Counted from the first letter of the whole stretch, positions 1,497 through 38,749 are shown. The stretch: 55,460 nt of DNA, filler included, from Sphacelaria rigidula (GCA_964200075.2; 4 parts of 4 records of this genome joined end to end with filler, not necessarily neighbours in it), one strand, 5' to 3'. Program-made: numbers and translations. Notes: generated by a model from the sequence alone, not told the origin.

Positions 1497-4403
1497 CATC
1501 AGTACTCTGCCAACGTTTTCCGTGTGCCCATGAGCTTACATCGACCGTTTGAGACCAGCTTTTCGAGTTACGCAACGAAACTTTGTACAAACGCTCCCTG
1601 AACTACATCGGGGCAAGTTCAGTTTTTATTTTTTATTTTGAGGCGACATTTTCCGGCTTCTGTAGTTCTCCACGCCAGCCCCCCCCGGAAGGCGGTACGA
1701 GAGCGGATAAACTTGTATATATTCTTGAACGATTTTTTCCCCCATTCGCATTACTCACTTTCACCAAACTGCCGATATCTGGATAAAGGAGCGTTTCTAC
1801 TACAGTTACAAGGGAAAGCGTCAAGAGGGTTAATGGGTCGTTGATGCATTTTATAATTAGTGAAAAGTCTGTTCTCAGTGTTATGTTAGTCTTCTTCAAC
1901 GTTATGGAGTCGTTTTTTAAGAATAGGCTCGCCAACACAGCACACCTGGTGTCTGATAATAATGCTGAAACATGACGTGTGTGTTGCTTGAAGCCTCAGG
2001 CAGGCGTTGATGCAGCAGTTTCGGCGACCCAAGGCGTTTCGTGCGCAGTGTGGCTTGAAAATACGATTCTGCGCGATGCTGCGTTTAATTCCGAAAATTA
2101 GAGCACTTTCTAGTGACGATTCTAGAGGGTAATGATGTGAAATCCGCGCGGAGCCAGGGATATATTTCACCGGCCTTGTTGTTAACGTCGGCCCCCTGTC
2201 GGTCGAGGCTGACACCACGACGGGAAATAACCACCAGTCAAGGTTTACAGTATCTTAGAGGCAGTGTCCTTGGGTACGCCATGCCGAGCAAAGATGCGGC
2301 CGAACAGCGTAGCCGAAGAGGAGAACATTTCCTCCCTCACAGTGCCAGACTTGTGGCGGTTACCACGACAGGGGCGATAGCTGCAGTTTTCTTTCATCAG
2401 AACCAACCCGATATTCTTACGCGGCTTGCTCCCACGTGAAGATATGACCTTTCTCTAACAGGGGCGAGATCGCCCTCTTGGAGAGGACAGAGTGCAGATT
2501 GCAATCCGGAATGTTCCCACCTTGGATAAAACATAGCCAATAATATAGTTGGAATAGACATGAAATGTACTGCGTGAAGGATAGGACTTTTGCGACTAAT
2601 GCTGGCTCATATTTTACGCAGTACATTTCTTGCCTACTGCAACTGTTGACCGTATATTGTCCAAACTGTGAGAAAATTCCACGGATGGATCGCAGGTATT
2701 CTAGCCCCGCAGAGACGTGGTTAGCATCGTGCAGTCGGTAGGTGCTGCAGTCCTCGGTTGTACTGCCACGAGTAACACACACAGTGTCAACTTCGGCAGG
2801 TATTGGCGTGGCGGGATACACGTGCAGTAAACGCTTCCCCCCTCCGCAGTGATATGCACATATGAATCGATACTGTCCACAGCACGCTGTCTTCAGTTCT
2901 CTCGTCTCATGTCAAATGCCGACCTCTCTAGTACTGCAACGGCTTGCATGATACAAGCCCTAAGCACGACGGTGCCCGAACCAGCGTGCGACCCGCATGC
3001 ACACGAGTACGCCAACAGCACACGACAGATAGATATAGACAACACGAGTCACCATGACGCGGCATCGAGTTACCTTAACACAGACACCCCGGCCATGACC
3101 CACACGTGCCCAGGCTGGCTATTGTATGCAAAGGGGTATATATTCAACTCTAGCGATGGCTCCTCTAGCAATGGCGAGCTACTGCTAGAGTGTCATACCC
3201 TTTGATTGTATGCATGGGCACTTGTCTCAAGACTTTGGCGGTGCAGCAGTACACACACAATATATACGCATAGAAGCTGTCGTGCAGTGCGATGGTTGAT
3301 TTTTCCACAGCATATATATGTCGATTCGGTGGAGAAGTCGGTCGCTTCCCTCACCTTGATATCAATCTAGTGTTTGTGTTAGCTTCCTAGAGTATAGCTG
3401 TCCTATGTAGTGCCCTCCGTGTCCTGCTGATAATGGATACATCGAAGAACTGCCAGCTGGGCTTGCGTGCGTGCGATCTGATGATGCGACCTGTAAACAT
3501 GTTTAATTCAACATACAGGGATGAAAATCAGCGGACCGCGAGGACAAGTATTTTTGAGGTTTAGTCAGCGCGCCAAACGTCACAAGTAACCAAGATCGCC
3601 ACGCAGACACTGCATTGTGTTGCCTTGCTTTCCAACTCACAGTTTTTGTTGCTCAGGGTCGAAGAAGCGACGACTGCAACACTCCACGGGACATCCACGC
3701 ACTCGTATCTGCCGCGCTGCAAGAACCGATATCTGAACTCGAAGTTTACAGAAATCTTGCCATCTGGGGTACTTCATTCAGAGGGTGCGGCAGTAACAAG
3801 CACCGTCGGTTTCTTGTCGTCCCTTGTTAAGTAGGAGGTATACCTTGTGGAAGGTGAACACAGTCACCAACGAAGACCCATTTTTGTTCACAGCAACAGA
3901 ACAGACATGAGTCGCCCAAGCACCCGCCGGCAAAGGCAGGCGAAGCTCTTGTCATCCGACGGCTGGAACTTTGGAGAATTCGACATGCAGCAGGTGTGCA
4001 CGTATTCTTTTCGTTGCCGTGCGCTCGATCAACATCAGGGCGGGAGGCTCGGAAGAAGCCGCCTAGGATAAACGGGGCGCAAGTGCGTCAGCGCACAGTA
4101 ACAGCATCATTTGTGCCCGTCGAATGGATCGAACAGTACAACAGAATCAACATCAGAGTAGTATGCTCTGTGAGGACAAAGCTGCCTTGTAGACGGCCGC
4201 CGCGACGGAGCTCTCAGCCGATCCTCGTTTGTTCGTGTAGCAGTATCTTGGCGGGATGGGGGACCGAGGAGCCGGGGGTCTGACACCAATACAACTTCGC
4301 GAAAAAATCTGCAGAGCAGCACTTGACTTTTGTTGACGCTCACGTAGATTTCGGGAAACTTGCCAACTGTATTTTCAGCATATAGTTTTGTCACAACGGC
4401 GGA

Positions 4404-5378
4404 GTGCACCTGCACGGCGTATCAATCCCAGCCTATACGTGTGTTCTGCTCTCTTTTCTTTTGTCGGCCATCATTTCCACGCACGCGCAGGTTGGCACCC
4501 GTCGCCAGCTCCAGAAGCAGCAACAGCACAGACAACTGCGCCCAAGGCCGCGCAAAACGCCCATACTGACGAAGAAAAAACGGGGAGGAGTCACAGGCAA
4601 GCCCGGGGGCAACAGTCAGCAACACTCCAAGAAGAGGTCCGCTCCAAACAACCTCCAGACCACGGCCCATGCACGTCGGGCAACTAGAGTTGCCCCAACT
4701 ACTGCAACGACGACTCGCTCTTCGGCTCGTCGCACAGAAATCGTTCGTGCACCAGGCCGCTCCGCCGATGAGAACCGCGGAAACATCGACACGTCGAAGG
4801 CAGACACAGTACCAATCGCGTGCAACAACCAACAACCAGCCAACCGACTAGGCAACAACCGAGCGGAAGCAGCTGGCAGGAGGACGCCTGCCGCCCCCAG
4901 GCGCCGCAACCCCTTCGCAGCAGCCATGAAGCCAGCACCCGCTGCAAACAGAACCTCTTCGCCGCGTCAGCCCGCTACTGCCCTCCAAAGGCTGAGGAGG
5001 GTGGTTCCCTTCGCAAGATGCACCAATCCGCGCGTGAACTCGCAAGCCTGTGAGTCGAGTGCCCTCAGCACTGCAGGCGGGGCACTTTTTTCCCCTGTAT
5101 CCCTGGTGACCACACCGGCGAGGTTTATCCGCGGTGTGGTGGGTTCGTCAGTGCAGTCTCTACGCACGGCGCTGTTCGGCGAAGAAAAGGCAGAGGAGGT
5201 CAGCGGCGGCGGTGACTCGAGGGAAGGTGCCATCAGCAATGACGCGGGGCTGAGCGGGGGTGGTGGAGAGGCCGGAGGAGGTTCAGTTGCAGGAGGTGGG
5301 GCGAGGAGTGGCGAGACGGAGCGGAGTGACAGTCCGGAGGCGGCGATGATGCGGCGCGCACGGAGGCGGCCTAACTAG
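4404..5378 (+). CDS. Low-complexity Ala/Arg/Gly/Pro-rich ORF or exon, unknown function (possibly TE-derived)
   Basis: 324-codon open frame, GC-rich; plausible acceptor cacgcgcag|gttggc at 4490; no recognisable domain. Confidence 0.3.
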   Translation: MHLHGVSIPAYTCVLLSFLLSAIISTHAQVGTRRQLQKQQQHRQLRPRPRKTPILTKKKRGGVTGKPGGNSQQHSKKRSAPNNLQTTAHARRATRVAPTTATTTRSSARRTEIVRAPGRSADENRGNIDTSKADTVPIACNNQQPANRLGNNRAEAAGRRTPAAPRRRNPFAAAMKPAPAANRTSSPRQPATALQRLRRVVPFARCTNPRVNSQACESSALSTAGGALFSPVSLVTTPARFIRGVVGSSVQSLRTALFGEEKAEEVSGGGDSREGAISNDAGLSGGGGEAGGGSVAGGGARSGETERSDSPEAAMMRRARRRPN

Positions 5379-5394
5379 CGATAGGCGGCGGGTG

Positions 5395-5900
5395 GTTATA
5401 TTGTGGTGGGCGGGCATGGGAACACAGGAATGGCGGGGTGGTAGGAAGGAAGGGCATAATCGGTCGTCTGATAGCTGTGGATGGGGGTGCGAAGTACGGC
5501 TGAGCAGGGTGAGGGACTCTCGAAGATTGTGGTGGGCTGGAGGATGGAAGGGTGGCAGGAAGAAAGGGCATCACTTGTGTGACAACTGTGGACGGAGGTA
5601 CGGAGTACGGCTGAGCAGGGTGAAGGGTTTTCGAAGATTGTGGTGGGCTGGGGGATGGAAGGGGGATGGCAGGATGGCAGGAAGGAAGGGCATCATTTGT
5701 GTGGCAACTGTGGATGGGGGTACGGAGTACGGCTGAGCAGGATTAGGAATTCTCGAAGATGGGGGTGGGCTGGAGGATGGAAGGGGGATGTCTGGATGGC
5801 TGGATGGGAGGAAGGAAGGGCATCAGGTTGTGTGGCAACTGTGGATGGAGGTGCAGAGTGTGGCTGAGCAGGGTGGCAGGGTTTCGAATATGGCGGTGTG
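5395..5900. repeat. G-rich tandem repeat, ~110-130 bp unit, about 4.5 copies
   Basis: Recurring GTGGTGGGCTGG.GGATGGAAGGG...GGGCATCA...CAACTGTGGA.GG.GGT.CGGAGTACGGCTGAGCAGG unit at ~5400, 5530, 5640, 5760. Confidence 0.85.
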
Positions 5901-8436
5901 CTAGAGGAGGGATAGATGGATACGACAACTGTGTACGAGACAACCAAAAGTATATGAGGCGGGGAAAGGCGGGGTGAGAAGAGCCAGGGCGATTGGGTTG
6001 ACTTGATGATCACGACAGTGACAAGGAGCAAGCTGTGCGTGGGGAAGCTACGTGCGTCTCGTGGTAGTGTACGAACTACGCTATCTGTCAGTCCTTACGC
6101 ATAGCACTGTTCGGCGACAAAGGAGGGGTGGATTATAGGCAGACGCGGCGACAGGAGAGGGCCGACATCAGGCAGGGGTTGGTCGTGAGCTGACGAAAAG
6201 GCCGTAGGCTCAGGCGCAGGGAGCGGGGTGGTAAATGGCGATGGAAGCGGGGCGGGGAGCCGGCGGATGGGTGAGTAGGGGAGGAAAGGTATGACGACCT
6301 CAGGATAAGGGGCCGGGAGGCAGGGCACCGTTTAGATGAGGGTCCTGGAGGAGAGCAATGGGTGTGGCCGAGTGGGGTAAGGGGGATTCGAATATGGCGG
6401 CGTCATTAAGAAGGAACACAGATGCAATATGTGTGTGGTTGAGACGAAGAGATATACGAATAGCCACGGTAGGGAGACAATGGTCGTGGAGGGTGGGATC
6501 GGGGGAGATGCGGTGGCTTGATCAAGGCAATGCAAAGTAGCAAACCGTGTGGGGGTAGGCTACGCACATTTCAGTGTTGCAGATCTGTGTGCGCCACGTA
6601 ATTTATATGTTTGAATCAGCGAGACTTCCAGTCAATCGCGGAGTCGTGGAGATATCGGCATTTTAATGGAGTTTGCTGCGTATGGGGAGTTCATTTTTAG
6701 TCTGTAAACGTGTTTATTTCAACGGACGGTAGTCGTGCTTGTCGTTAGTGATTGTTTACGTGTGTTTTGTGTTTGTTTTTGCAGTTGTAGCGCGGCATGA
6801 CCTCGCTGTTGAGTTTTTTGCTGGTGAAATATATAACTCGACCCAGCGAGCGGCACCAGGCAACACGCGTTGTAGGAAGTCAGCACAGGCAGGAGAGCGT
6901 GAGCATATACACACACGTATGAACTCATGTGCGGCGAATCGGGTGCTAGCAACGACGGAAGAGATCAAGCGCCAAATCACATGATTTGGGGTTGTTCAAA
7001 CAAACGATCACCACATTTTTAGCGCCGTCAGGTTGGGTCTCGAATTTCGCTCTCGGCAGCACTGTGGAAATGAGATGGCCAAAACCGCGGATCGACTGAC
7101 ATGTTTTCAGATCGATATTCATCACGATATCCAGAGCAACACAAACCGGGGCCTGTGATGTAGAGGGATACGCAGCTTGCCTGGACACATAGCGACACAC
7201 GTACAGACATGTGATGTGTTCCCGGAGTCTGTGTGTTATCGGTGGCATTTGTTTCACCCAAAGCAACTTTTCCTGCACTATTACACACGCTGGGTACATA
7301 CAAACACGGGAGTTGTGATGGTGCGCCCCCCCCTGCATCCAACACCCCCTATCGCCAGCTCAACGCGACGCGCAAACAATGTCTACTAATTATCGACACA
7401 TACATCCAACTACCATGCGCATCTCGAGAATCCGTCACCTCGTCTCGACAGCTATACCACGTGCCACCGGCCAGAGCGATACGGTTTCGGAAAGGTCTCA
7501 GGGGACAAGTGTTCGTGGACATGCCTCCCATGGTCAGCCCCATTGCATTTATCCAGAGGAGACTGTATTCGATGTGGTGAAATATCCACACTCCGATCGA
7601 ATATACCGATGCACCTTTCGGATACCAACCCCTTCGCGGCTGCCTGCTCAGTCAGACCGATGCTGACCGAGATATGTTGAGATTTCACAATCTCGTGCAT
7701 CCTCTCACTACAACAAAATAGACTTTGGCAGTCACAGAGGTCGCACAGACGCGTCGGAAAAACAGGGATGCCGTGTGCCTAGCTACGGAAGCATTGGAGA
7801 CATGCAGTTAACTTTCTCTATCTCATACTGTGAGTAAAGTCAGTCATGGGATGCAAATCGAATCTCCCCAACGGAAATGCGTCCGATACTGTGCTCATTG
7901 AAAAGACACAGTTGTGAAGATTCTCATGAGAGGAAGACAAATCGATGTCATGGAGTTGAGAGTTTTCAAGACGAAATTGCCCATATTTTGATTTTTAATA
8001 CTTTTCGACATCTGTTTTAGGATTGTCTGCTTTTTAATCATATTTTCGACGGTTAATCGCCGCCCACTTTGCTTGCCTGCCGCAACCACGAGGGACTCTC
8101 GCGAGCACACCACCCCCCTCCCCCCTCTTCCCCTGTTATAAATAGGGCGCCGAAGTATCGTTGGACCGCCGTTGCGCCATTGCGGTTGAGATAACGGGGA
8201 CCACCCCGCCAGGGAACTCAAAGTTTCCGAAGGGCAAATCAGAATCACTCACGGAGCGGTACGGTGTTGATCCCGGGTACCAAACAAAACGATGGAAAGA
8301 CTGCAATACTCAGAGAGACGGTACCGAGGAGCTCGACCTCTCGAGCAAACATCGGAGTGGCGTCGCTTCTTACTTCAACAAAGGGCCGCTGCGCTGTGGA
8401 CGGTCAACAAGCATATCCGGTATTCTTTCGTGATGT

Positions 8437-8952
8437 CCCCCCCCGCCCCCCCCGCCATGTCCGGCGAGAAGCCGGCGTGCTTTGTCCCGGTTTTATAGGG
8501 GCGGACATCCGATGGGATTGGCGTCGGTTGGCGATGCCGCTGCAAAACACGTCACTCACTGCGTAAGCCGGGTAACCAGGTTACCGACTGTTTTTTGCAT
8601 GCTCGCGTTTTTTTTCTGCGGTAAACATGATGGTAGTCGAGCTAGATTATGTTGTGCGGCGTGGGAGAACCTCAACTCCGCGCGAAGGAGATGATCGTAC
8701 TACGTAGCGTTTAGATGATGAGACACACATGAGGCAGTGTACAAACCGCCGCTGTCTCTGCAAGTAGCGATACCATAAAATGAAGCAACTCATTGCGGAC
8801 TGTCATCCAAATGCAAGATAATCAGTAGGCTTCGGGCCGAACAATCTTTGCAAGAGGCAGCTCGCTCTTCATGCGACTCGCCGAACACACCACGAAGCTT
8901 CGCGCTCGGTGATTGATCGCGAGCCTGATCCGACGGAACCCTGGCGTGCTCC
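8437..8952 (+). mobile_element. ~600-bp poly(C)-tailed non-autonomous element, 3'-truncated copy preceded by a C-tract
   Basis: Reverse complement of 9290-9790 throughout; starts right after CCCCCCCGCCCCCCCG. Confidence 0.8.
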
Positions 8953-9110
8953 ATGAAGGGTGAGCTGCATCCTCCTAAAGTTGTTTAGCCCAAAGCGTAC
9001 TGATGAGCTTGCACTTGGATGGCAGCCTACAGTGAGTTGCTTCATTCTCTGGTATCACCACTTCCAGAGAGAATCACGGGCTACACATGATCTCGTGGGC
9101 GTCTCACCAT
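8953..9110 (-). mobile_element. Internal fragment of the ~600-bp element, opposite orientation
   Basis: Matches 9371-9530 (AAGGGTGAGCTGCATCCT...GTCTCACCATG). Confidence 0.75.
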
Positions 9111-9200
9111 GGGAGGGGGGAGTGTACTCATTCGTTGCTTGCCTTAGTCGTTTGACCATTGACCACGCATCCCTTTCGAGACGGAGCACCGTGGCGGGCG
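9110..9200 (-). mobile_element. LINE-like 3' terminus (encodes ...APSRKGCVVNGQTTKASNE*) with poly(C) tail
   Basis: Same sequence at 11690-11780 (-) and 54200-54283 (+); open frame ends just before GTACACTCCCCCC. Confidence 0.7.
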
Positions 9201-9800
9201 GGGAGGGGCGGGGGTGGGGGCGGGTATACTCATGATCTTGCATGCCATAGTCATGTGACAATTGACCTCGCATCCTTACAAAGCCGGGACGGAGCACGCT
9301 GGGGTTTCGCTGTACCAGGCTCGCGATCAATCACCAAGCGCGAAGCGCCATGGTGTGTTCGGTAAGTCACATCAAGGGTGAGCTGCATCCTGCCAAGATT
9401 GTTCGGCCCGAAGCGTACTGATTATCTTCCACTTAGATAGCAGTCTAGAATGAACTGCTTCATGTTCTGGTTTCGCCGCTTTCAGAGACAGTCATGGCCT
9501 ATACACTGCCTCACGGGTGTCTCACCATGTAAACACTACGCAGTACGATCATCTCCTCTGTGCGGAGTTGAGGTTCTCCCACTCCGCACGATATGATCCC
9601 GCTATACCACCATCATGGTTACCGCGAAAAAGCCCCGCGAGCGCCTTAAAAAATCCCGGTAACATGGTTGCCTAGCTTGCACAGTGAGTGACGTGTTCTA
9701 CAGCGTCATTGCCGACCGACGTCAACCCCATAGGGAATCCGTTCCTACAAAGTCGGGATGGAGCACGCCGGTTTTTCGCCGGACCCGGCTAATATGTAGG
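9200..9800 (-). mobile_element. ~600-bp poly(C)-tailed non-autonomous element, near full length
   Basis: Colinear with 22445-22950 and 52308-52918; G-tracts at both ends on the + strand. Confidence 0.85.
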
Positions 9801-9920
9801 AGGGGGGGGTGTACTCATGATCTTGGATGCTGTAGTCATATGGCCACTGAACTCGCATCCCTACAAAGCCGGAACGGAGCACGCCGGCTTTTTGCCGGAC
9901 CAGGCTCACGGTGGGGAGGG
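9801..9920 (-). mobile_element. 5'-truncated copy of the ~600-bp element
   Basis: GGGGGGGGTGTACTCATGATCTTG...CCAGGCTC matches 9222-9322, followed by GTGGGGAGGG. Confidence 0.8.
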
Positions 9921-10119
9921 TCAGCTATTGCTCGAGAAATACGGGTCCGTGGATCTATGCACATCAACGTTGTTTTGGACACGTGCCCTTCGGCGAGATA
10001 AAGGGTCACCAAGCTCCCAACATCGCGATAGAGGGACCGTTCTGAGTAGTGTTTCCTACCTCAAGACTTGTATCAGTGTGGGTTACTCTCCCGCTACGCT
10101 TGGTCGATTTTACCTCACC

Positions 10120-10920
10120 TTTGATTGATTGATTGGTTATCGCACTTCACCTTATCCCTCAGGGATCCGGCCGTGGTCATTATCCACATGGTAGACATAC
10201 CCGAGACAAAACAAAACTGTGACACTCGCAGACGAAAAGTGAACAGACGAACAGGGTAATAGACTAAGAAAAAAAGAAGAAAATATATGGAAAAAAAATA
10301 GAACAGAAAAACGATAACGGCAAAAGAAATGAAGAAGAAAAAGAAATGGCTGGCCCTTCCCTCATGGCTTCGGAGGAAAAGGTCTTGCGGAGAAAGTACG
10401 CTCATATCCAATCGTAGAGAACAAAAGGACGTGGGAAAAGATTGCGGATAATCGACTACGACCTCACTATTTGTGTGTGTGGAACCTCTCATCTATGAGC
10501 CCTACGGGGGCGAGGCACCAAACGCATCTGGCATACATCGGCGGAAGAAAAATACGTGCATAAAGAGAAACGTAGAGAAACGGAGAGCAGAGAAGGCGAC
10601 TACAGAAGTGGTGAAATCCAAATGATTCAGGGCAGCAGAGCAGGCACAAGCGCACACCAGAGGGCACCCCAGAAGCACCGACCAAGGGCAAAATCAACAA
10701 CCGGCAAAGACAGGCAGGATTGTCCCATTGGCGGCTCTCGACGCAGCAGTCTCTCGCTTGTCTTCGCATCGCCGCGTGTCTCCAAACTCTTTCTATCCTT
10801 TCTCGACCCACCATATACCGTGTGATAGCTCCTCTGTTGCTAAACACAGCGTCCGTGATGATGAAAATGTCTGGTTTTGTCCTGGCCGGCAACAATTTCC
10901 TGTTTTCAGCAGCTCGCATA
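10120..10920 (-). mobile_element. (CAAT)n-tailed non-LTR retroelement 3' region (possibly a LINE 3' UTR with decayed ORF end)
   Basis: TTGATTGATTGATTG tail at 10121; 10120-10470 is homologous to 12055-12702; extent beyond 10470 is uncertain. Confidence 0.6.
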
Positions 10921-11689
10921 TCCTAGTATTGCTTGAAGTCGACCCGTTGACCGCAAACCACAAGAGTGAGCCATATTGATGTCGGCATCATGTGTTACTT
11001 GGAAGATTAATTCAAACTCTAGTGGACCACCCTGGCGGCCGTATGGCGGTCGCGGGGTTATGGCCCGTTCTCAACGACGGGTCGGAAAACTTTCGATCTA
11101 CTTCGCTTTTCCCTACCGGTGAAAGTGCAAAGCGATAGTTTTGATGCAAATGGCTTCTAGGTCCCCTTCCACATTGCACTTGTCATCGCACGTTGTTTCA
11201 CCAGTAGCCGCCGGCGACCAACACCAACATCATGATCATATCCAAGAACGGCAAAATCTCCTCTATCGATGAGTGATGCTGGGATCTCTCCCCCCCTCCC
11301 CCCGCCCCCGCCCCCGCCCCCCCAAAGGGGTTGATTTGAGCAGCCAAAATCTACATTCGAGGCAGAATGAGAAAGGCTGAGCACGCAGAGCAGCTGGGAA
11401 CTCCCCCGCCTCGAATCGTTTTCGCCAATAATATCGCCCGTACGAGGCGCTTCCTGCAGTCTGTGACCAACTATGATGCGCTGCACGGTCACTTCCTTCT
11501 TGACTGTTTGGGAGCTTGTTTAGGTGGAGACTTTCGCGGCATCACTTTTACGACATGCAGTGTAGTCATCGTGTGTGTGTGTGCAGTATTGGGACTATGC
11601 GTGCATCAAACCGCATGAAACAAGCAGCGGTGCTGATTTTCGACGCTGCCCACCATTCAAACTTGGAATGGAAATGGGCAACGCGATGT

Positions 11690-11780
11690 GGGGGGGGGCG
11701 TTACTCATTTGTTGCTTGCCTTAGTCGTTTGACCATTGCCCACGCATCCCTTTCGAGACGGGGCACCGCGATGGGGGGGA
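11690..11780 (-). mobile_element. LINE-like 3' terminus with poly(C) tail, G-tracts on both sides
   Basis: GGGGGGGGGCGTTACTCATTTGTTGCTTGCCTTAGTCG...GATGGGGGGG; matches 9110-9200. Confidence 0.75.
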
Positions 11781-12054
11781 ACGCCATGGATTTTTCCAGG
11801 CTCCAAACGTACACCGCAGGAATGTGCACGGAAAACGGAAATGTGCGAATGAACAAGAAACAAATATTTTCCCCCCACCAAGAACGGTGATTATCTGCAG
11901 CGTTGCGCTGCTGGGCATGACACCGCGTGATGGGATATTGCATGGTGGACGAGGATCCCAAACCGCGTTAATAAACGTGTCGTTCTCCATATTTTTAGGT
12001 GGAAGTAAGGGTACCCGCGAATCGTTTACACGGCATCATAGCTACAGAACTGAT

Positions 12055-12702
12055 ATTGATTGATTGTCATCATCTACTTTAACTGATCCCCCAGAAGTCA
12101 TTATCCAGTTATGGCCATTTTCTACATGGTAGACGTACCCGAGAAAAAAAATGGAAGCATTCGCTGAAGAAATAGGGAGCAAATGCGGAAATATTGGACA
12201 GATGAGAAGCGTAGACGAAGAGAAGAAAAGAGGAGAAAATAAAAAAGAAAAGAGAAGGGAAGAGAAGGGAAGGGAAGAGAAGAAAAGAGAAGAGAAAAGA
12301 AAAGAAAAGACAAGAAAAGACAAGAAAAGACAAGGCAAGGCAAGGCAAGGCAAGGCAAGGCAAGGCAAGGCAAGGCAAGGCAAGGCAAGGCAACGCAAGA
12401 CAAGACAAGACAAGACAAGACAAGACAAGACCAGACCAGACCAGACCAGACCAGACCAGACCAGAAAAGAAAAGAAAAAACAAGACAATAAAATAAAATA
12501 AAATGAAAAGGTGGGGGGAAAGAACGAAACAAAACAAAGCACCAAAAGGACGAAGACAAAGAAAGAAAGAACTAAAGTAGAAATGACCGGCCGCTACCGT
12601 ATGGCTTCGGTGCGAGAGGTCTTGCGAAAAACTACTCTCATATCCAATCGTAGAAAATAGAAGCCCGTGGGGATAGATTGTGGCTAATCTATTTCGACCT
12701 CA
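12055..12702 (-). mobile_element. Second copy of the (CAAT)n-tailed element, containing an expanded microsatellite
   Basis: Shares ACATGGTAGAC.TACCCGAGA and ATGGCTTCGG...GGTCTTGCG...CTCATATCCAATCGTAGA...CGACCTCA with 10185-10467. Confidence 0.8.
12220..12505. repeat. Compound pentanucleotide microsatellite
   Basis: AAAGA/GAAGA tract, (CAAGG)12 at 12331-12390, (CAAGA)7, (CCAGA)7, AAAGA, AAATA. Confidence 0.95.
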
Positions 12703-12957
12703 GAGCAATGCTACCGCAGGGGTGCACTTTTTGCGCAAAATCGTGTCTGGTTTGGGGCTCCTAACGATTCTAGATGCACAAGGATATGGACCAGGGCATC
12801 CCCGTTCGCAAATTCATTCGGGATATCCCTAGCACATTGGAATAGTAACCCTGGCGTACTCTCATATACTTCATGAGTCATGTTTTGGATGAGATGCAGG
12901 GCTCCTAACAATTCCAACCTCAGAAAATGTGTGTGCACCGCTACCGTAGAATCACGC
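12703..12957. mobile_element. 255-bp Sola-like MITE
   Basis: ~25-bp TIRs beginning GAG (GAGCAATGCTACCGCAGGGGTGCAC / GTGCACCGCTACCGTAGAATCACGC); perfect 4-bp TSD CTCA; same length as the 18114-18368 copy. Confidence 0.8.
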
Positions 12958-13792
12958 CTCATTATTTTGGGTTTGAGGCCATCATCCATGAATGTCGCTG
13001 TTGTGTGGGAAGTAGACCGTCCACAGGGAATTCAGGTGGCTTTGAGTGGCCATACTCATCAAAGCAAATAGACAGACTTTCTATACAAGAGTCAAGTGCT
13101 TGATGGAGATCTTTTCGAAAGTGAATGCGGCCGCGTAACTTTTGCTAGATTAAAAACCATGATGTCTGCATATTCGCGAACGTTTTGCCCGCCTCACGCG
13201 ATACATCACGCGAATCTCAAAATGCTGCAAGAACAAATGCAAGTTTTCGATAGCAGTAGTGTGAGGTCTAGGTGATGAACAATCACAAATTTGCGTTGAC
13301 AAAAACTCTGATGTCCGTGTGTACCAAAGTCGCGTAGCTAGGTCTTCACGCTTCAAAGCTAACTACTTCGAAGTGGTGGTTATCTCTACTTTTATAGTAC
13401 AAGGTGTCGACTGAAACAAGTACTTAAGTGACGTAATTAGTTGGTCGCACATCCTGACGTCAAATGGTTGATGTACCTGTTCCAGTTGATGAGAGAATCT
13501 CCTTCAATGAGTCCTTATCTCGGCCACTAGGTACTGGAGAACTCGTTCTTTTGGCTGTCGATTACTGGACAAGAAGCAGAATCTATGCAGTTCAGGTACT
13601 CTGCGCGTACTCTTTCGCCCGGAAAAGGTACAACGCTTCCACTGTAACGCCAACACCAAGCAAGGTCACATGTATACCTCTCCTGATTACCAACCCAATC
13701 GGGGTAAAGGGGTGATTATATGGTAGAGGGAAATGTACTAATTAAGATACGCTTAAGGCACCTGGCGGGAAAAACTCTATATCTTGGGACCC

Positions 13793-13892
13793 NNNNNNNN
13801 NNNNNNNNNNNNNNNNNNNNNNNNNNNNNNNNNNNNTTAATTAATTAANNNNNNNNNNNNNNNNNNNNNNNNNNNNNNNNNNNNNNNNNNNN
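13793..13892. other. Artificial scaffold-joining linker
   Basis: N44-TTAATTAATTAA-N44; stop codons in all six frames; identical at 27683 and 41572. Confidence 0.97.
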
Positions 13893-14599: not shown

Positions 14600-16092
14600 A
14601 GCATGCAACAGAGCAGTAAACTGGTGGGGTGAGGAAGTGAAAGAGGCTATCAGAGTAAGGAGAGAGGCCCACGCTAGATGGATGTCGAGCAAAAGTACGG
14701 TCGGATGAGAGGAGTGTACTAAAGCTCGAAAGGAAGTAAAAAATATGGTACAGAAGAAAAAGAAGCAAGGTTGGGATAACGTAGTATAAAAACAAAAAAT
14801 GAAGATTCAGATGACGGGATGAAACAAATGTGGACAGGGATATGTGGAGAATAGTGGCTCGAAAGAATTGCAGAGAGAATCCACCAGAGGTGATGTGAAG
14901 GAGTGCGTAGTGTGACGATTCATAGGCAACCTGAATCGTCGAAGTAGCTAAACTCGCAAGAACAAAAAGGCAGCACGGGCAGACGTGAAAGTGAATGAAT
15001 TTCAGAAGCATGGGGAGGGAAAGAATTATTACCATGATGGTTATGCTGTTATAACTGGATATGGGAAAACGGGTACACGCTCAAGAGGTGAAGAGAAGGA
15101 GTAGTAGTCGATCTTTTCATAATACGAAACAAGGCTGACCCAGAGAACTATAGAGGGATACCGCTACTGAGCACGGTAGTAGGGAAAACGTTCTGTAAGT
15201 TTCTGAACGATAGACTAGGAATGATGCCAGAAAGGGACGCAATATTTTAGCGAGGGGCAAGCAGGATTTGGACCAAACCGTAGTTGCGTACATCATGTGT
15301 ACACTCTAGGTAAAATAAAAGTCAGGGTAGGAAAGACGCCGGGTTGACAACATACTGTTTCTTTCTGGACGTGCAAAACGCTTATGACGCAGTATGCAGA
15401 AATGGGCTGTGGAAAACGTTGTGGGGAACTGGGATCAGAGGAAGGACGTAGAGAAGGCGATAGAATGCGCCAAAAGTACCATCTATGATGCTAGACGGGG
15501 AAATATCGAAATATGTTGATGTTCTACAAGGAGTTGCACAAGGATGTACGTCATCACCCGCTCTATTCAAGGTATTCATTCATGACCTGATACTAGCAAT
15601 AGAAGCAGCAAAGCAAGGAGTCAAGGTGGGTGAAGATGTGATATCAGGTTTGGTGTTTGCAGACGGTTTTGTTGGAATTTCAGGAACAGCAGAAGGATTA
15701 CAAAAACAGATAGACAAGGCGCTAGCAAATGGAGAGTGACAGGGAACGTTAACGACTGCGGGGGACTCGCCTCTAACGAAGATGAGAAACATCCGGCAGA
15801 GTTCAAATGGAAGTGAGGAGAAGAGGAACTGCCGATCGTAGACCAGTATACATACCTTGGCGTAGAGATATATGTATAAAAAATGTTCTTGCGATGCACA
15901 CAAAAATGAAGTACTAGAAAAGGGGTAAGGCGCATATAGGAAGGATGGACGTGATCCTCAGAGACTCGCACATAGACACTAGGAGTAAGAGATGTATCCT
16001 GATGAAGGTGATCGTACCAAAGCTGGAATATGTAGGGGAAGTATGGGGGGGGGGAACGTGAAGTTGGTGAAGAAGTGAGAAACAGTACAGAC
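14600..16092 (+). pseudogene. Decayed non-LTR retrotransposon (LINE) ORF2, reverse transcriptase region
   Basis: RT motifs DPENYRGIPLLS, EGQAGF, FLDVQNAYDAV, GVAQGCTSSPALF, FADG, YTYLGV across frameshifts and stops. Confidence 0.9.
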
Positions 16093-20052: not shown

Positions 20053-21373
20053 TACTCGAACTCCTACTACTCAGGAATCTTGTTAGAGGTATTGATGAAT
20101 GCGTCTATTTTTCCTTTATGAAATCTTTAAAGTTTTTGAAAACAAATAAATCTTCAAAGAATGTGGGAGCGCATTTCTTCACCAGGTCAGGCAATAGATC
20201 AAATTAAGGCTGACTCAAGGGTCTGTCGAGAGAAAAAAAATCGGACACGGAGCCCGCCCCCCCGCCCCGGAGGGCAATTTTTCGAAACTTGTCATGAATT
20301 TTTACCTTTTCTTCGTGTTTTTTTTTGTGATTTTTGTCAATTTTTCGTTGAATTTGTTGTCAAAAACTGATCAACAAACACTGACAGAAACCGAAAATTC
20401 TGGCGGGCTTTGCGAGATTTGCTTCTCCTCCTTGTCCGCCGATGACCTCGGATGCCGGCAGCGCTCACACACATCTATGCACAATACACGAGCGCACGGT
20501 AGCGACAGCCTGTAGTCAAAGTAGCAAGATTCTCTCACGCCTCGCCAAATTTTCCCGGACTACCAGTGGTGGGTAGTCGAGGCACACGACACGGAACATG
20601 ATCCCATAAATGTAGGGGCGGTGTGTCCGTCATCTCAGCAGTTTCCATGTTAAGGATCTCTGTACACGGCAGCTGACCGCATCCACCAACGCCTCAGCAA
20701 TAAACAAGGGGACAGCAGGATGGGTGTCCCCCCCCTCCCCCCCCCCTCGAAAACTCGAATTTTCGATCTTGGGGCCTACGTGTCCCGAAATATATTCTTG
20801 AAAGACCCTTGGCTGACTAGATTTTTCTCCGAAAATCCAGCGTCCGAATTTTGTCTCAGCACTTCTTTCCGGAGATGTTGGGAAACGATTCCCATTTTTC
20901 GGGAAAAGTGAAAAAAAATCTGAAATGTTTCCAGGAACATCATCAGATCCCCCGCACCACAACTACGCTAGCGTTATGTGGAACAAGACACTGTACACCT
21001 GCAGAAGAGTACGGACACGGCGAACCTCACTGAACGGAACAAAACTCAATTTACAGCCGTCGCAGAGAAGCACGGTACGTATACAGCACATGCGTACCAC
21101 GTGTCCGATCTGATCGTATGTCTTATAGCTGTAGATGAGAATTTCAACCCATGCTGATCTTACCTTGCTGAAAGTGAGCACGGCGGTGGCACCACAGCTA
21201 TCGACACATCATACGACCATGTTGTTGCTGGCCCATCGCATGCAGTACAGTACACTGCCGTCTCGTCAACACGCGCACATTGCGAGGACTACAACAAACC
21301 GTACACATGTGCGCCCACATTTGCTTTACAGAAATTCGTGAAAATCGTACCAGCAATATTGTTTTACTACATC

Positions 21374-21527: not shown

Positions 21528-24500
21528 CTGGGAAATTTAAATGCAGCATGAGCAAAACGGAAAAGAGTGGGCCCGAGAACGTCCATCATCATCTGTAAGC
21601 ATCCATCGTGTGCCTTGTTTGTGGTTTGGGAGAGACCTTTCGCGCGAGGACAAGACGGGAGACACAGCCAATGAGGTAAAAATACGCATGTTCTGAAACA
21701 AGGATGATCGCAGTTCAGTTTACCGTACCTTCTCAAGATCGATGCCACTTGCGGGTAAATCAATCGCGCGATATGAACTGTACACACTTCAACAGAATTC
21801 CAACGCGAACTACCAGAGTAGCCAACGATGGATTTCATCGCAGAGAACAGGCTAGAACCTGTTTCTGCCCCAATCAAGCGGCCGAACATCAGGCGGAACA
21901 TCTCCCACAACATGCTCCATTCACCTTTACATCACCCACATACACTTCACACGCAAGCGCACTACTCCATTCACTTGCCCAAAACAAAACTACGACACGG
22001 GAGAGGAGAACCCCCGCCCCGGTCCCTGATCCTCACCTGTCCCCATTCCATCGTTCCATATCCCCCCCTCGCGCGTGACCTACCCCCGGCCGTGGCGGCA
22101 TATTTTGACCAACTCCCGGCGGGTACACGTGCGGTGGACCACCCGGACCCGGCCCGGACCCGTCAAACCAGGGTGGAGGTCCTCCCACGTGTCCCAGGCC
22201 ACCAGGCGGACCAGGCCTTCCGCCGGGCCCCCATGCATCGGGCGGCGCGCCTGGTGGTCCCCGCGGCGGGAAGTTACCTCTGCCCACCCCACTGTGCGGT
22301 GGTTGCATTGGACGCTGTTGTACGCGTGGGGTCACGCGATGGAATTATAAAAAAATGTGGGAAGGGTGTTGTAGGGTCGGCAAAATGCCGGAAAGTGAGG
22401 AATATACAAGAGGGACAAGCGCACATCGCAGGGTGGCTATGGCGAGAGGGGGGTGTACTCGTTGCACACCGTGGTCATATGACCAGTGACCTCGCATCCC
22501 TGCAAAGCCGGGACGGAGCACACCGGGTTTCCGCCGGACCAGGCTCGCAATCACCAAAGCGCGAAGCGCCGAGATGTGTTCCGCGAGTCGCATGAAGGTT
22601 AAGCTGCATCTTACTAAGATTGTTCAGCCCGAAGCCTACTGATTATCTTGCATTTGGATGACAGCGTACAATGAGTTGCTTCATTTTCTGGTGTCGCAAC
22701 TTCCAGCGACAGCCACAGGGTACTGCCTCAAGGGTGTCTCACCACGTAAACACTACGCATCTAGTACGATCATCCCCTTGGCGCGGAGTTGATATTCTTC
22801 ACCCCGCATAATATGACCTAGCTCGACCAAGGCCATGGTTTTGGCAAAATATCGCAAGCGAGAACAAACGGCAACCTGGTTGCCTAGCTTACGGACTGAG
22901 TGGCGTGTTGTACAGCGTCGTTGCCGATCGACGCCAACCCTAATAAGGGGGATAAGGAAAGGACGGGTGGGGCAAATCCACAACTCACGGAACTTAAATA
23001 TCGAGTGATTATGCAACCACTGTGTTGAGGTATACGATGCTATCGCTGCGTGCACGAGAAAACCCGCGGATTGCTGCCAAAAAGCAACCCGATGGAATTA
23101 TAGGAGTGACATTGGCCTTCCGCGGGGAACCGGTGGAGCCGGTCGACTCCACGCAGTTGTAGGAATCCGAACAGAAACACAGTGAGCTTGCTCAACCCGA
23201 AAATAGCTAAATAGATTGTAGTTTTCGAGCGACTCCTTCCTTTGCTGGTCGAAAGCTCACGTCATATTTGCGCGTGAGCGCGCGAGGGAGTGACGTAGTT
23301 CTTCAGGGTCGAAACTCACCGGCGGATCGCCGCCTCCTCGGCGCGGCCCACCTCCTGCGTGTCGCATATGGTTGCTATTCTTGGTGGACTTTGCGGTGGT
23401 TCGATTAAATTTGTCGTAGCGATTCCTGCGGCGCGAGCAAAGAGAGAGAGAAAATAATAAAGCGTGTCTTGCGATGTTATCGTACGGACATGCAAGACTG
23501 ATCCTACGAGAAAGCGTACATCTGCATGTGACCCATTACTGATCGCATCGTCAAAGCTGCATTATCTCAACCAGTCGCCGCGCTTTTGGCAGGCCAGCGG
23601 CGGCGGGCTGGAAATAAAAATTCAGGCGTTTCAGTTAGGAGACGACATCACCTCTCTCAATAAACCGAGGAATACTGTTCCGAGAGGCACACCCCTACAA
23701 GTCTCTCTATAGAACACTACCGAACAGAACAAAATGAGTCAAGATACACACACTGCGGATCATGACGAGATAAACGTCAACCGTGTGCCAAAAAAAAACA
23801 AAATCACGAGACACGTGACAACACGAGACGGAATAGAGGCACCGCAGTGCACCTGCGCAATAACGTGAGTCAGACCACGTCATGCTGAAATAAATCATTT
23901 TCAGACAGGAGTGAAAAATCGTGACGGAAGCTATGATCCAGGAGCGGCAGAGCAATGCCGTACTGTCCGACCCCAGGCTGGATTGCTGTTGGGGCAATTG
24001 GCGGCGGCGACAAGAGCAGCAACATACATCTAAGTTGCGGGTACTCTCGCCTGAGTTGCTTCTCGCAGTAAACCCGCCACGATTCTTCTGTGAAGCCGTA
24101 GTTGAAGAAATCTGCGACGTCTACGCCGGGATGTCGCCACGGTTGTTCTTCCATGCCGTCGATATCGACGTCAAACGCTGACTTTCCCGCTGGGACCTGT
24201 TGCGTATACCAAATGTTTTTTTTGTTCAATTGCACCGTTCTTGACGTACGTATCTAGCACTACATCACCGAACAGAGAGTGGGGTAAGTTGGTTGAAGGT
24301 GGCGGCAAGCTATTGTACGTTATACAAGACGGTTTAATAGGCAGATTCTCAAAGATTCGGCGTAACATCGCGGAGGAGGATATGGGCCGGGAGAGTGGTC
24401 CATAGCCCGCCATGAAGAGGTGAGACGGGGACAAGAAGCACAGCCGGGGACGATCTATCTCGACTGCTCAAGACAAAAGCGGAAATGTATAAGATGCTGG

Positions 24501-27085
24501 GGAAATGCGAATTCCACGAATAGCATGCTCCCATGAGCCCTGCAATAACTGCCACGCCGCGTCGGCGACAACGCGATGGGAGGATTGCTTTAGCACTCAA
24601 CCTCACTCAAGCTCATGCCGTGTACGTCCCCAAAGGACCGCCGTCAACGTTGAGGGCATATCCGGAATTTTTGCATTCGTCTTTCCAGTTTCCACCTGGA
24701 ATAATGGAAACGACTATTTTATGCTGGATTCCTTGTGCACACGTCCTACATACACTCTACATCCCATCAAAAGATGTCCTCCCAGCAGCACAAGTGGTCA
24801 GCATGATGACAATCATCCCCAAGAACAGCAACATCATATCTGCAAGCAATGCAGTCGCGGGGTGCGCAGTCTAGGGGCTACGCGTGCCCCAAACTGCATG
24901 AGACGAAGACAAGCACTGTGCTCTGCGTGCGGATCATTCTCGGAGGTAAGACTCTCTGAATCCGAACATGGAAATGGACATCACCACATGCAAATAGGTA
25001 ATAGTTGTGCAGCTTCCCTCTCTCCTAAAAAAAGGGAAATGTGCATGGAAAACGTGCAGAGGGAGCGAAAGCGCCCATGCTATCATATCGTTAGGAACGG
25101 CATTAAGAAAACAACACATTGGTACAAAGAGAGGCGTTTCAGCGAGTCAGAAAGTACAGCATACACATGTACAAACTGCTCCCCCCCCCCCCCCCCCGCC
25201 GCCACCACGCCCACTGCGCGACGCCGCCCCACCCCCGGAGCACACCGCCCCCCCCCCCCCCCCCCCCACGAGGTCAATGGTCTTATGACTATGGCATGCA
25301 TGATGATGAGTACACCCCCCCAACCCCCGCCCCCCGAAAACCCTCCCTACAGATAAATTTTGAACTGATCATGGAAAGTATCCGCATCAGATGATCAGTA
25401 CGGTAATACACGTACTCCGCAGATATCGGAATGGTTTTTACCGTGAACAAAAATAGCTACAACAAACTCATTATCTTTTCTTGCAAAGTTAGCTAGATGG
25501 CACCCGAACTTGCAAGAATCTTGGCACCTCACAAACTCGACGGTGGCCTACACACCTGCAATTCGGCAGTTGGGGGGTACTCTCCCGGCTTCAGCGACGG
25601 CCTTGCTCCAACAACCGGAGCCCCCTTTGATGGTACGAGCGAAGCGATTGCAGCCGCCGCCGACACCGGCTTCGACGCGGCGCTACTTTTGGTGGTGATA
25701 CTACTATTGCCGCTACTGTTGCTGGCAGCAGGGGGCGGGGTGTTCACCAGCGTGTTGGTACCTGATCGACGTGTGTACGCATGTTGACCGTATGAAGACT
25801 TGTCCACGTTCTACCAAAATAATCAATTTGACTCGAGTCCGTGGTACAGAGGATCTCCTTCTTGAGAGTCTGATGAACGGGGGAAAATATTTAGTTTTTT
25901 CGATTTTTTCGAGAGATTAGATTTTCGTTTCCGACTTCTCCCGAACGAACGATGCTGCGAAAATATGACGCTTGATTTTGGGAGCAAAACCGTAGTCAGT
26001 CTTCAATTGATCTATAGCGCGACCTGATCGAGAAATATGCTCTCACTTTTATTGGAGTTTTTTTTTTTCGAAACACTCGGATATTTCTGGGTTGGAAAAC
26101 AGACCCGTTAGTAAGACATCTTACATTTCGAGTGCGCTCTGCGTAACGTTGTGTAACTTACACGCAATATGGCTGATCGTCAGCATGGGAAACCTTGAGA
26201 AATACTGGAAATGTTCACAACGAAGGTAGGTAGAGCTACGAGCATGCGTATATCTGACGAGCGTTAGTATAACACCGCCTGCAGGCAGTATGCATAGGGG
26301 TTCTCACCACGCAGAAATCGTTTGGTGGGAGCGGCTGGAGCCGCAGGGGCTTCCCTCTCCCGCCCGACCACGATTCTAAAACCGTCGCCAACGTCATCAC
26401 CATCGCTACTGTCCTCTTCATCTCCCCCCGCGTTCGCTTGCCCTGCGTTAGTATTGCCCTTCTGATCACCAGCGCCTGAGACTGCCACCTCCTGCGATGC
26501 CGCTACCACGGCCGCCGTCACCGCAGCCACCCCCGCCGCACCGACAGACATCGGGTTCGCCTCTGACTTGACAGCTGTTCCTGGAGAGGACGCCTCTCGG
26601 CCGCCGCCTTCCTCGACCAAAACATTACCACCATCCGCTGAGTTCTTCTCGTTGGCAGTAGTTACAGGCGGCTCTATTTTTCTGCATGGCGCGGTCATGT
26701 CAGCCTGTTTGCTGTCCGTGGTATCAGCATCTGTTGCTTCAGAATCAGCTTCAGCCGGAGCTTCGACTGCGGGGTCGGATGATTTAGCAATCAGAGATGG
26801 CGGAGACCCTGCCGCCCTCGATTCGCTTTCGCTGCCGCCCGCTCCTGCTGCGGTGTTTGTTACAGACGCTTTCGTTTCTACTTCTTCTGCGATCTCCTCC
26901 TCAACCTTCGTCGCCCGTCCCTTCAGCGAGGCTGCTGTAGACTTGCTGTTCGGGGTGAACGCCAAGAACGCGTCATGAAGAGCGGAGGAGTGGGTGTTTC
27001 GAATCCTGGCCGTAGTGTCTGCCTGTCTGCGCAATGGTTTTACGGCACTTGTACTTATACGACCTGTTTTGATACGTTGGGCCAT
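21374..27085 (-). CDS. FIP1: FIP1-like pre-mRNA 3'-end processing factor, multi-exon gene span (5' end uncertain)
   Basis: Fip1 motif exon plus phase-compatible GT-AG exons upstream (26308 to 25761) and downstream (22037 to 21527); acidic N-terminal part and Pro/Gly-rich C-terminal part as in FIP1 proteins. Confidence 0.85.
22037..22279 (-). CDS. FIP1: FIP1-like exon, Pro/Gly-rich (GNFPPRGPPGAPPDAW...WNGDR)
   Basis: Pro/Gly-rich frame; donor AG|GTGAGG in phase with the last exon. Confidence 0.75.
22445..22950 (-). mobile_element. ~600-bp poly(C)-tailed element in a FIP1 intron
   Basis: Colinear with 9222-9735; GAGGGGGG at left, AAGGGGG at right. Confidence 0.85.
23320..23354 (-). CDS. Candidate 35-nt FIP1 micro-exon
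   Basis: CACGCAG|...|GTGAGT splice signals around a GC-rich 35-nt block; phase not resolved. Confidence 0.4.
24051..24196 (-). CDS. FIP1: FIP1-like exon encoding the Fip1 motif
   Basis: AFDVDIDGMEEQPWRHPGVDVADFFNYGFTEESWRVYCEKQLR is the hallmark Fip1 motif; acceptor AACAG|GTC; donor position approximate. Confidence 0.93.
25268..25335 (+). mobile_element. Severely 5'-truncated copy of the poly(C)-tailed element inside a C-tract
   Basis: C-run then CGAGGTCAATGGTCTTATGACTATGGCATGCATGATGATGAGTACACCCCCCAACCCCCGCCCCCC. Confidence 0.75.
25556..25761 (-). CDS. FIP1: FIP1-like exon (GTNTLVNTPPP...PPTAELQ)
   Basis: Acceptor ATCAG|GT in phase with the previous exon; donor CAG|GTGTGT. Confidence 0.7.
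26308..27085 (-). CDS. FIP1: FIP1-like exon, acidic/Ala-rich N-terminal region (true start may be the acceptor at 26945)
   Basis: ...GGDEEDSSDGDDVGDGFRIVV... resembles the acidic D/E-then-IVL segment of FIP1; donor G|GTGAGA at 26307. Confidence 0.75.
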
Positions 27086-27101: not shown

Positions 27102-27682
27102 CAGTACTTTGCAGCTGAAATGGGGTATTATTATAGTCGGCGATTTTCAGTAGTGTTTTCGCGTGCCACCGTTCATCCCAGTGAAGGCTTGATCCCAAAG
27201 TTTGGGGATCGAAAAATACTAGGCTTCCGCTCTACATTCCGAAAGAAAATTATCTCTGCAGTCAATCTTGAGCGGCTTACGGGCTGACCGGTTTTTGGGG
27301 GACTACCCAGCTCCTGGTACTGACCCTTGAGTATTTTTGCTCGATTGAAGCAATCCCGCTCGTTTTCATGAACAAATATAAAGGGATGATTTTCTGAATT
27401 CCTGTTTATTCATTGCACTAAAGCTGAACATGTTTTTTTTTGCCCAGTGACGGTCGATAGCACCCCCGATACACGAAGGACTCAGTCCGTATCACCCTGA
27501 AGACACCAAGTAAAAATCGTGCCCTGGGCACGACCTGCTTTTTTCCCAATATCTAATAACGCTAGGGCTTTCAAGCGCTGAGGAAAAATAGTGTACAAAA
27601 AAAAAATCAGAAAAGTACCCAAAAACGAAAATTGCCCAACCGAGCTTTGTTTATCACAGGTGTGGGTTGTTGTTTTAGTGCC
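27102..27682. mobile_element. Tc1/mariner-like MITE, left part (cut by scaffold end)
   Basis: TA|CAGTACTTTGCAGCTGAAA terminus; colinear with 51739-52299. Confidence 0.75.
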
Positions 27683-27782
27683 NNNNNNNNNNNNNNNNNN
27701 NNNNNNNNNNNNNNNNNNNNNNNNNNTTAATTAATTAANNNNNNNNNNNNNNNNNNNNNNNNNNNNNNNNNNNNNNNNNNNN
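27683..27782. other. Artificial scaffold-joining linker
   Basis: N44-TTAATTAATTAA-N44. Confidence 0.97.
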
Positions 27783-36353: not shown

Positions 36354-36600
36354 GACACTTTCTACGATAGCCCCTCCCCAAAAGTGCATGGTTTTGGGAG
36401 GCGAAATCTTCACGTAAATCGGAATGGGAAAAGCCGAGCACAACGAGAAGCTGGGGATTCCCACGCGTGGGTTCGTTCTAGCCAATGTCCGCCTATATGG
36501 GTCGCTTCATGCAGCCTGAACCCGAGCATCGAACGCTGTATGGCCATTTTTTCGTGACACTTTAGGCTGGTTTTGGGGGGGGGCTATCGTAGAAAGTGTC
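36354..36600. mobile_element. 247-bp MITE
   Basis: Perfect 21-bp TIR GACACTTTCTACGATAGCCCC; flanks GAGA/AAGA. Confidence 0.8.
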
Positions 36601-38525: not shown

Positions 38526-38730
38526 TGTAATGCGTGAGAGGACCGCGTGCTTAGAGGACCGCACCGGAATTTGAACATCCCCATGGTTAGGGTAAGGGTC
38601 AGGGTTTGGGTTAGAGTTAGGGGCGTGGTACCTGCAGTGACTGGTCCGATTGGTTCTGAAAAACGTCGATCCTGAGGTGTTTTGAACCACGGCGCGGTCC
38701 TCTAAGCACGCGGTCCTCTCACGCAATACA
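38526..38730. mobile_element. 205-bp Ginger-like MITE with internal telomere-like hexamers
   Basis: ~37-bp TIR TGTAATGCGTGAGAGGACCGCGTGCTTAGAGGACCGC; TGT...ACA ends; perfect 4-bp TSD CCAT. Confidence 0.85.
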
Positions 38731-38749
38731 CCATCTTCTTTACGCTGTA

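Follow-up and report, generated by a model that had tools for sequence, protein, structure and literature searches.

Stacked and solitary repeat copies in the window

The window, a stretch of 55,460 nt from the brown alga Sphacelaria rigidula (GCA_964200075.2), is made up of four scaffolds, separated from one another by N spacers (13793-13892, 27683-27782 and 41572-41671). Two kinds of repeat copy were located by BLAST of the window against itself and by alignments, namely a LINE-type end of about 65-80 nt (L, n = 3) and a non-coding element of about 610 nt (N). The coordinates of these copies, their C-rich tails and flanks, and the degenerate LINE fragments are given in Table 1.

Table 1. Copies of the LINE end (L) and the partner element (N), adjoining C-rich runs and LINE relics in the window
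Coordinates	Strand	Feature	Support
8437-8456	+	C8-G-C8-GCC run adjoining the 5' end of a tail-less N copy	X4 contig placed on 6726-8490 spans the run
8457-8952	+	N copy with full-length 5' end (reference positions ~17-510), without 3' module or tail	BLAST, alignment
8952-9111	-	N fragment (reference positions 272-431), 5'-truncated and tail-less; tail-to-tail with the 8457-8952 copy at 8952	
9112-9121	-	C-rich tail (TCCCCCCTCC) of L_9112	
9122-9192	-	LINE 3' end L_9112; encodes ...GAPSRKGCVVNGQTTKASNE, then stop	94% identity to the L002 LINE
9193-9224	-	N_9196 tail, 32 nt and C-rich, doubling as the L_9112 5' flank	
9225-9798	-	N_9196, full-length N, reference copy	BLAST, alignment
9799-9809	-	Tail (C8TCC) of N_9800, also the 5' flank of N_9196	
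9810-9909	-	N_9800, 5'-truncated N, last ~100 nt only	
9910-9920	-	C-rich 5' flank (CCCTCCCCACC) of N_9800	X1 and X3 contigs from 9878 (to 10199 and 10193) span it
11676-11698	-	L_11690: C9 tail (11690-11698) and 3' copy of the target-site duplication (ATCGCGTTGCCC, 11676-11687)	
11699-11772	-	LINE 3' end L_11690; first 12 nt (11761-11772) match the duplicated target at 11/12	
11773-11779	-	C7 run at the L_11690 5' junction	X1 and X4 contigs span it
14603-16091	+	Second degenerate fragment (RT region), from the same LINE as the 37880-41341 relic	
22448-22942	-	N copy, C6 tail (22448-22453), body 22454 to ~22942; 5' end diverged, not definable	
25248-25335	+	C20 run, 47-nt N tail fragment (25268-25314; N_25333), then C7-AA-C5-G-C6 tail	
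29694-29998	-	N_29694, internal deletion, body 29706-29964; C6-A-C5 tail (29694-29705); C-rich 5' flank (C8, 29991-29998)	
37880-41341	-	Degenerate related LINE ORF2 relic with stops and frameshifts	Aligns to P0005 residues 592-1313
52308-52918	-	N_52301, full-length N (52317-52910); C7 tail (52310-52316); CCCCCTC on both sides (52912-52918, 52308-52314)	
54196-54280	+	L_54280 LINE 3' end (54204-54267); C6 tail (54268-54273); CCCCTA(C) on both sides	100% identity to L002 over 70 nt

All nine ends listed in an earlier note on this DNA were recovered at their places, and its claim that the copies are spread over all four scaffolds held, with L and N copies present on 4/4. The same G/C motif that it had described on both sides of 52308-52918 was found as CCCCCTC. 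Two N copies without a tail (8457-8952 on the plus strand and 8952-9111 on the minus strand) had been overlooked, and so the stack that had been reported as three copies at 9110-9920 is indeed a stack, with five copies in 8437-9920. Four tandem members of this stack lie on one strand.

The two additional N copies, which lie on opposite strands, meet with their 3' sides at 8952, where reference position ~515 of one abuts ~431 of the other. Neither contains the tail module, and a C-run stands at the outer 5' end of each. The joint at 8952 may have arisen from a convergent (quasi-palindromic) pair that lost its centre, or through a change of strand while the copies integrated, and no contig bridging 8952 was found among the contigs listed.

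Full N copies measure 574-594 nt plus the tail and are non-coding. Three full-length starts lie within about 10 nt of each other, each preceded by a C-run. The variable 5' truncation claimed earlier was found to be polarised, with 9/11 copies retaining the common 3' end and differing in their 5' ends, the two tail-less copies being the exceptions. A pol III-type head of the kind that defines a SINE in the strict sense (derived from tRNA, 7SL or 5S RNA, with a pol III promoter) was not found: the search for tRNAs was negative, and Rfam returned nothing at gathering score for the window and nothing at E<=1 for 9100-9920.

An internal direct repeat was observed in N, the first ~50 nt (reference positions 11-57) being similar, at 82-87% identity, to a box at 476-524 that immediately precedes the shared module (noted for 9225-9798, 52317-52910 and 8457-8952). 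N_9800 (9810-9909) begins near the start of the repeat box at 476-524.

The shared 3' end and the LINE reading frame

The earlier claim that two different repeats have a common 3' end of ~60 nt running into a C-tract applied to all nine window ends. The shared module of ~60-65 nt ends with GAGTA and is present at 9/9 listed ends, in each of which GAGTA (GAAATA in N_29694) is followed by 1-3 nt and then by C6-C9, and after some ends the C-rich run extends up to 32 nt, e.g., 9193-9224. GAGTA was invariant across an alignment of nine rows (eight window ends and the LINE of public contig L001; N_29694, which reads GAAATA, was left out). The motif GTACTCAT occurs five times in the window, compared with 1.17 expected. 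As for 3' structure, 0/14 predicted pairs covaried in the alignment fold, and seven single folds of the module had z-scores of -1.6 to +0.9, no more stable than shuffles.

To the link between this end and a reverse transcriptase, which had previously been inferred only, three lines of evidence contributed: protein C-termini, public DNA contigs, and contigs from sequencing runs of the organism itself. Among brown-algal LINE proteins with intact ORFs, the C-termini of P0005 (1360 aa), P0004 and P0003 read ...NGAPSRKGCVVNG(Q/L)MTKASNK and that of P0006 (1328 aa) reads ...NGAPSRKGRVVNGQMTKASNK, which is the same C-terminal peptide as that encoded by the L ends of the window. P0005 contains the domains Exo_endo_phos (E 3.4e-12), Exo_endo_phos_2 and RVT_1 (E 9.8e-31), indicating an APE-type non-LTR retrotransposon with endonuclease and reverse transcriptase in one protein.

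A 20-letter tail pattern was scanned across public metagenome, genome and viral collections. One metagenome contig (L001) was found with an open ORF2, then the same end, then C8, and one genome contig (L002) with a 1382-aa open frame, then the same end, then C13, while the viral collection yielded 0 contigs. The sole copy in the genome behind L002 is L002 itself, and the L ends of the window are 94-100% identical to it. On the reverse strand of L002 at about 440-525, upstream of the intact LINE, an inverted and diverged tail-like module (GGTGCTCCGTC...CAATGG...CATGAGTTC) was observed, which belongs to another family member.

Contigs of four runs (X1, X3, X4 and X5), which contain 0.36-0.95 of a unique window stretch (0.78-0.95 for X1, X3 and X4), were placed on 5000-13792. 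From position 9192, 453 (X1), 355 (X3), 496 (X4) and 58 (X5) contigs run into the ORF2 coding sequence that L001 and L002 also carry. In the contigs of X5, a run only guessed to be RNA, L and N copies are embedded in longer sequence.

In the LINE, a single long ORF codes for 1360-1382 aa and stops at the TGA inside ATGAGTAC, 5-6 nt ahead of the C-run; the shared module is therefore LINE coding sequence. The same stretch contains stops in N. Sharing between N and the LINE is limited to the last ~65 nt of N, with 75-81% identity to L001/L002, in agreement with the earlier idea that the partner borrows a LINE 3' end. Judged from these alignments, N is probably a LINE-dependent element that takes only the 3' end from the LINE, and the last ~65 nt of the LINE coding sequence would double as a 3' recognition module.

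The ORF2 copy at 37880-41340, for which the earlier note had raised a junction with this tail, is a related but different copy without the L tail. It was ruled out as the carrier because its alignment to P0005 stops at residue 1313; it aligns to L002 positions 2815-5028 and then runs on in other sequence. Its degenerate reverse transcriptase at 39770-40321 on the minus strand, when read through, matches brown-algal LINE proteins. The sequence following the relic occurs twice in direct orientation (36934-37143 and 37668-37877, 86% identity), and contains GAGTACCC; its encoded peptide, ...QRAAIE..GLDNAHFTRS..., corresponds in diverged form to the L C-terminus, which suggests a putative sister family with a different 3' end. 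A repeat of ~210 nt forms two insertions in the relic in opposite orientations (38524-38730 and 40363-40576), with inverted matches of 37-41 nt at its edges, and may be a small DNA transposon.

C-runs at the junctions and elsewhere in the window

A 5' junction was scored for a C-run within 12 nt upstream, and nine junctions were definable; those at 22439 and 29694 were left out as diverged and not placeable. A run of C>=4 was observed at 9/9 junctions against a background of 3.3%, and a run of C>=5 at 6/9 against 1.1%, and the earlier claim of a C-tract at most 5' junctions is thereby exceeded at the lower threshold. Three of these junctions are the tails of sister copies; excluding them, the counts were 6/6 and 4/6, respectively. 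In several copies the C-run contacts the first base of the element, as in C20 at 25248-25267 and in 8437-8456.

Target-site duplications were found in 3/3 solitary copies with definable ends, a small sample, and all begin with the C-run. For L_11690, the 5' copy is C7 + ATCGCGGTGCCC and the 3' copy is C9 + AC + ATCGCGTTGCCC (C-runs of 7 and 9; pattern C7 + ATCGCG.TGCCC); for N_52301, CCCCCTC stands on both sides (5 and 7); and for L_54280, CCCCTA(C) stands on both sides (4 and 6). In all three, the 3' run has 2 C more than the 5' run. Of these duplications, two span just 6-7 nt, and the third, that of L_11690, overlaps the start of the element itself, leaving its boundary ambiguous. The 5' copy of the L_11690 duplication is a hybrid of target and element, which suggests that this junction formed at a microhomology.

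In all three copies the C-run is separated from the element by the unique letters of the duplication, indicating that the run belonged to the target and is not an addition to the cDNA end. A duplicated target that starts with a C-run is also what L1-like pairing predicts, in line with the tail/target pairing idea put forward earlier, and the duplications are arranged as in L1 insertions, C replacing A. Targeting of C/G tracts as the apparent mode of insertion is supported by these junctions. No target duplication was found for the full LINE in L002, the first 1300 nt of which hold no run of C>=5. With regard to empty sites, none of the 15 joints listed (of 15 + 1339) skips exactly one copy. 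The repeat at 51781-52299 / 27134-27649 was rejected as a paralogous empty site, since its two copies match only to a point 10 nt short of the N tail and differ from there on.

Past the L tail at 11702, the consensus of loose ends is mostly C across the 30 letters displayed, with longest unbroken C-runs of 26 (X1), 19 (X3) and 26 (X4), as derived from 163, 158 and 189 contigs, respectively, at a per-position agreement of 0.52-0.56. Among the joints listed for X1, in 9/15 an L fragment beginning at 9187-9189 directly adjoins another tail (N at 9802-9805 or L at 11702; 118 contigs in total), indicating that head-to-tail stacks with members in the same orientation are frequent across the genome. 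A shared strand of stack members is expected if a C terminus pairs with a G-run as primer.

Many genomic L fragments were observed to start at one fixed point (9186-9192), which lies some 77 nt short of the end and directly follows a long C-run. The point is among the best-supported loose ends listed (4178 further loose ends), and in X1 it comprises 221 + 175 contigs with a long C-run upstream of the L start at 9188/9189. Reverse transcription may preferentially stop here, or these fragments may be a discrete mini-element.

Runs of G/C of at least 10 nt occur nine times in the 55-kb window, compared with 0.08 expected from base composition. The earlier note had suggested that the L/N family could explain the many poly-C/G runs; only 9/29 runs of at least 7 nt are at L/N copies. 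Since 20/29 do not adjoin any copy and other repeat families with C-runs are present, the L/N family alone does not explain the tract excess.

Several of these other runs were located. A different repeat family (20257-20263, 44747-44757 and 45215-45229) has an internal C7-C15 followed by GCCCC..GGAGGGCAATTTTTC and is a source of excess C/G runs separate from L and N. Another repeat, present as an inverted pair (33029-33254 and 36365-36592), carries ...GATAG + C7-C9 + AAAA(G/C)CAGCC... at one end. Compound C tracts of up to C29 with no recognisable L/N adjoining are present at 51096-51234 (with a 10-N assembly gap inside), 25181-25197, 11290-11323 and 20728-20746, and may have come from other families as their tails or from insertions consisting of a tail only. 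On the minus strand, 23873-24253 is a host exon that encodes a Fip1 motif (Pfam E 1.5e-22), and 7/7 of its protein matches are brown-algal.

Proposed insertion mechanism and known systems

Taken together, the elements are probably a brown-algal LINE with endonuclease and reverse transcriptase and its partner of ~610 nt, most likely of the RTE-X group, which insert by target-primed reverse transcription at C/G tracts. In the proposed mechanism, the endonuclease would nick the G-strand of a C/G tract, the freed 3' end of the G-run would pair with the terminal C's that the RNA is presumed to carry, and reverse transcription would begin at the paired G-run end, frequent early stops giving 5'-truncated copies. 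A second nick 6-20 nt downstream would produce a duplicated target beginning with the C-run. Every insertion would leave a C-run on either side, and later insertions would enter those runs in the same orientation, giving head-to-tail stacks such as 8437-9920. Against this explanation stand the two copies in 8457-9111, which are entirely without the 3' module.

The C's on the RNA are the point at which a different reading of the same elements and the same C-tract targeting departs. It holds that the RNA has no real C-tail, its end lying a few nt beyond GAGTAC and perhaps including two C's, so that nearly all of the C-run on both sides would be duplicated target, and the family would copy existing tracts and create none. 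The excess of only 2 C in the 3' run of the three solitary copies fits this reading, as do the short tails of most window copies (C6-C9), and we know of no cellular activity that adds poly(C) to transcripts. It is nevertheless considered unlikely, since the consensus past the L tail at 11702 has unbroken C-runs of 19-26 in three runs while G/C runs of at least 10 nt occur only nine times in the window, the 32-nt compound tail at 9193-9224 is unlike the 5' flank of N_9196, and the tail of N_25333 (C7-AA-C5-G-C6) is unlike its 5' C20.

A further proposal, that the C-runs are made by the reverse transcriptase and not chosen, would involve untemplated G's on the cDNA end and a jump to another C-terminated RNA, whereby one event would yield a head-to-tail array with C-run joints. 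Such arrays are common, many L fragments among the best-supported loose ends start at 9188/9189 behind a long C-run, and the run touches the first base of the element at 25248-25267 and 8437-8456. This proposal is very unlikely in view of the unique letters between the C-run and the element in 3/3 solitary copies, and of the full-length N starts, which cluster within ~10 nt while also lying behind C-runs. That there is no mobile-element signature, and that the pattern reflects an assembly or sequencing artefact (spurious G-runs from two-colour chemistry) or local tandem duplication, is hardly credible. Homopolymers are error-prone and short-read contigs break there, but the C-runs are strand-specific relative to the element with unique sequence alongside, and contigs of three runs from two studies span them at 8437-8456, 9910-9920 and 11690-11779; because of this strand specificity and these spanned junctions, the runs are not sequencing artefacts. 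The independent public contigs L001 and L002 also carry the same end.

A broader form of the targeting model, in which the LINE uses a C homopolymer as L1 uses poly(A), multiplies its own landing sites and is, together with sister families, a main source of the excess of long C/G-runs in brown-algal DNA, is put forward tentatively and is itself rather doubtful. If true, a C-tailed LINE needs a tail that is made or renewed without polyadenylation, e.g., by read-through and slippage of the reverse transcriptase. A C-run terminus with a duplication starting with the same run would free the L1 principle from A/T and from polyadenylation, would offer a testable cause for part of the brown-algal C/G-tract excess, and would mark C/G tracts as places prone to nested insertion and to breaks in assemblies. 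The use of the last ~65 nt of the ORF2 coding sequence as a mobilisation module would aid annotation of the most abundant repeat class of brown algae.

The pairing of a LINE with such a partner is already known, because the same architecture has been published for Ectocarpus, where the non-autonomous RTEX-N1_Ec32 of ~600 bp is described as very abundant and of unknown 5' origin, with a 3' end conserved with the autonomous RTE-X LINEs RTEX-1/RTEX-2_Ec32 and likewise without a pol III-type head (PMC12477816, passages on these elements). N is likened to RTEX-N1_Ec32 by this description (~600 bp, non-coding, 3' end shared with an autonomous LINE, brown-algal host) and not by sequence; the host is another brown alga, and the identity of the LINE to Ectocarpus proteins is 32-68%. 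One Ectocarpus protein, P0010, ends in the related peptide ...NAPSSRGRVVNGLTAK. The assignment to the RTE-X group, most likely on this basis, rests on the description in those passages of PMC12477816 and on Ectocarpus matches at 47-57% identity. The same passages mention no C-run tail, C-run flanks or target choice, and the main text of PMC12477816 contains neither "homopolymer" nor "C-rich" (0 occurrences). RTEX-1 is also named in Saccharina, with no tail data in the passages concerned (PMC4421812). In the literature searched by titles and abstracts, no non-LTR retrotransposon with a C-run tail or C-tract targeting was found.

The elements can be placed beside three further systems. Known LINE tails consist of poly(A), of A-rich sequence or of short tandem repeats, and to our knowledge no C-homopolymer tail and no LINE targeting C/G homopolymers has been described. 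"Stringent" LINE/SINE pairs share a 3' end, e.g., UnaL2/UnaSINE1 of the eel. As in that pair, the partner consists of the LINE 3' module with a short repeat-like terminus, and the tail is not poly(A); in contrast to it, the module here is LINE coding sequence with the stop 5-6 nt before the tail, and the terminus is a C homopolymer instead of a short tandem repeat. A conserved 3' stem-loop recognised by the reverse transcriptase, as in stringent pairs, had support here neither from covariation (0/14 pairs) nor from fold stability relative to shuffles.

In mammalian L1/Alu, the poly(A) tail, which comes from polyadenylation, pairs with the T-run of the nicked target. The present elements resemble L1/Alu in the 3' homopolymer, the duplication starting with the same homopolymer, the strong 5' truncation and the insertion into older tails, and differ from it in that C/G takes the place of A/T and that N shares sequence with its LINE whereas Alu does not. 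The R1-clade LINEs Waldo, Mino, Kibi/Koshi and Dong target the simple sequence carried at their own 3' end, and the match between target and 3'-end simple sequence is common to both; those LINEs belong to another clade and target di- to tetranucleotide repeats. What is new here would be the C-homopolymer terminus together with the targeting of C-tracts, as a variant of the pairing between LINE tail and target.
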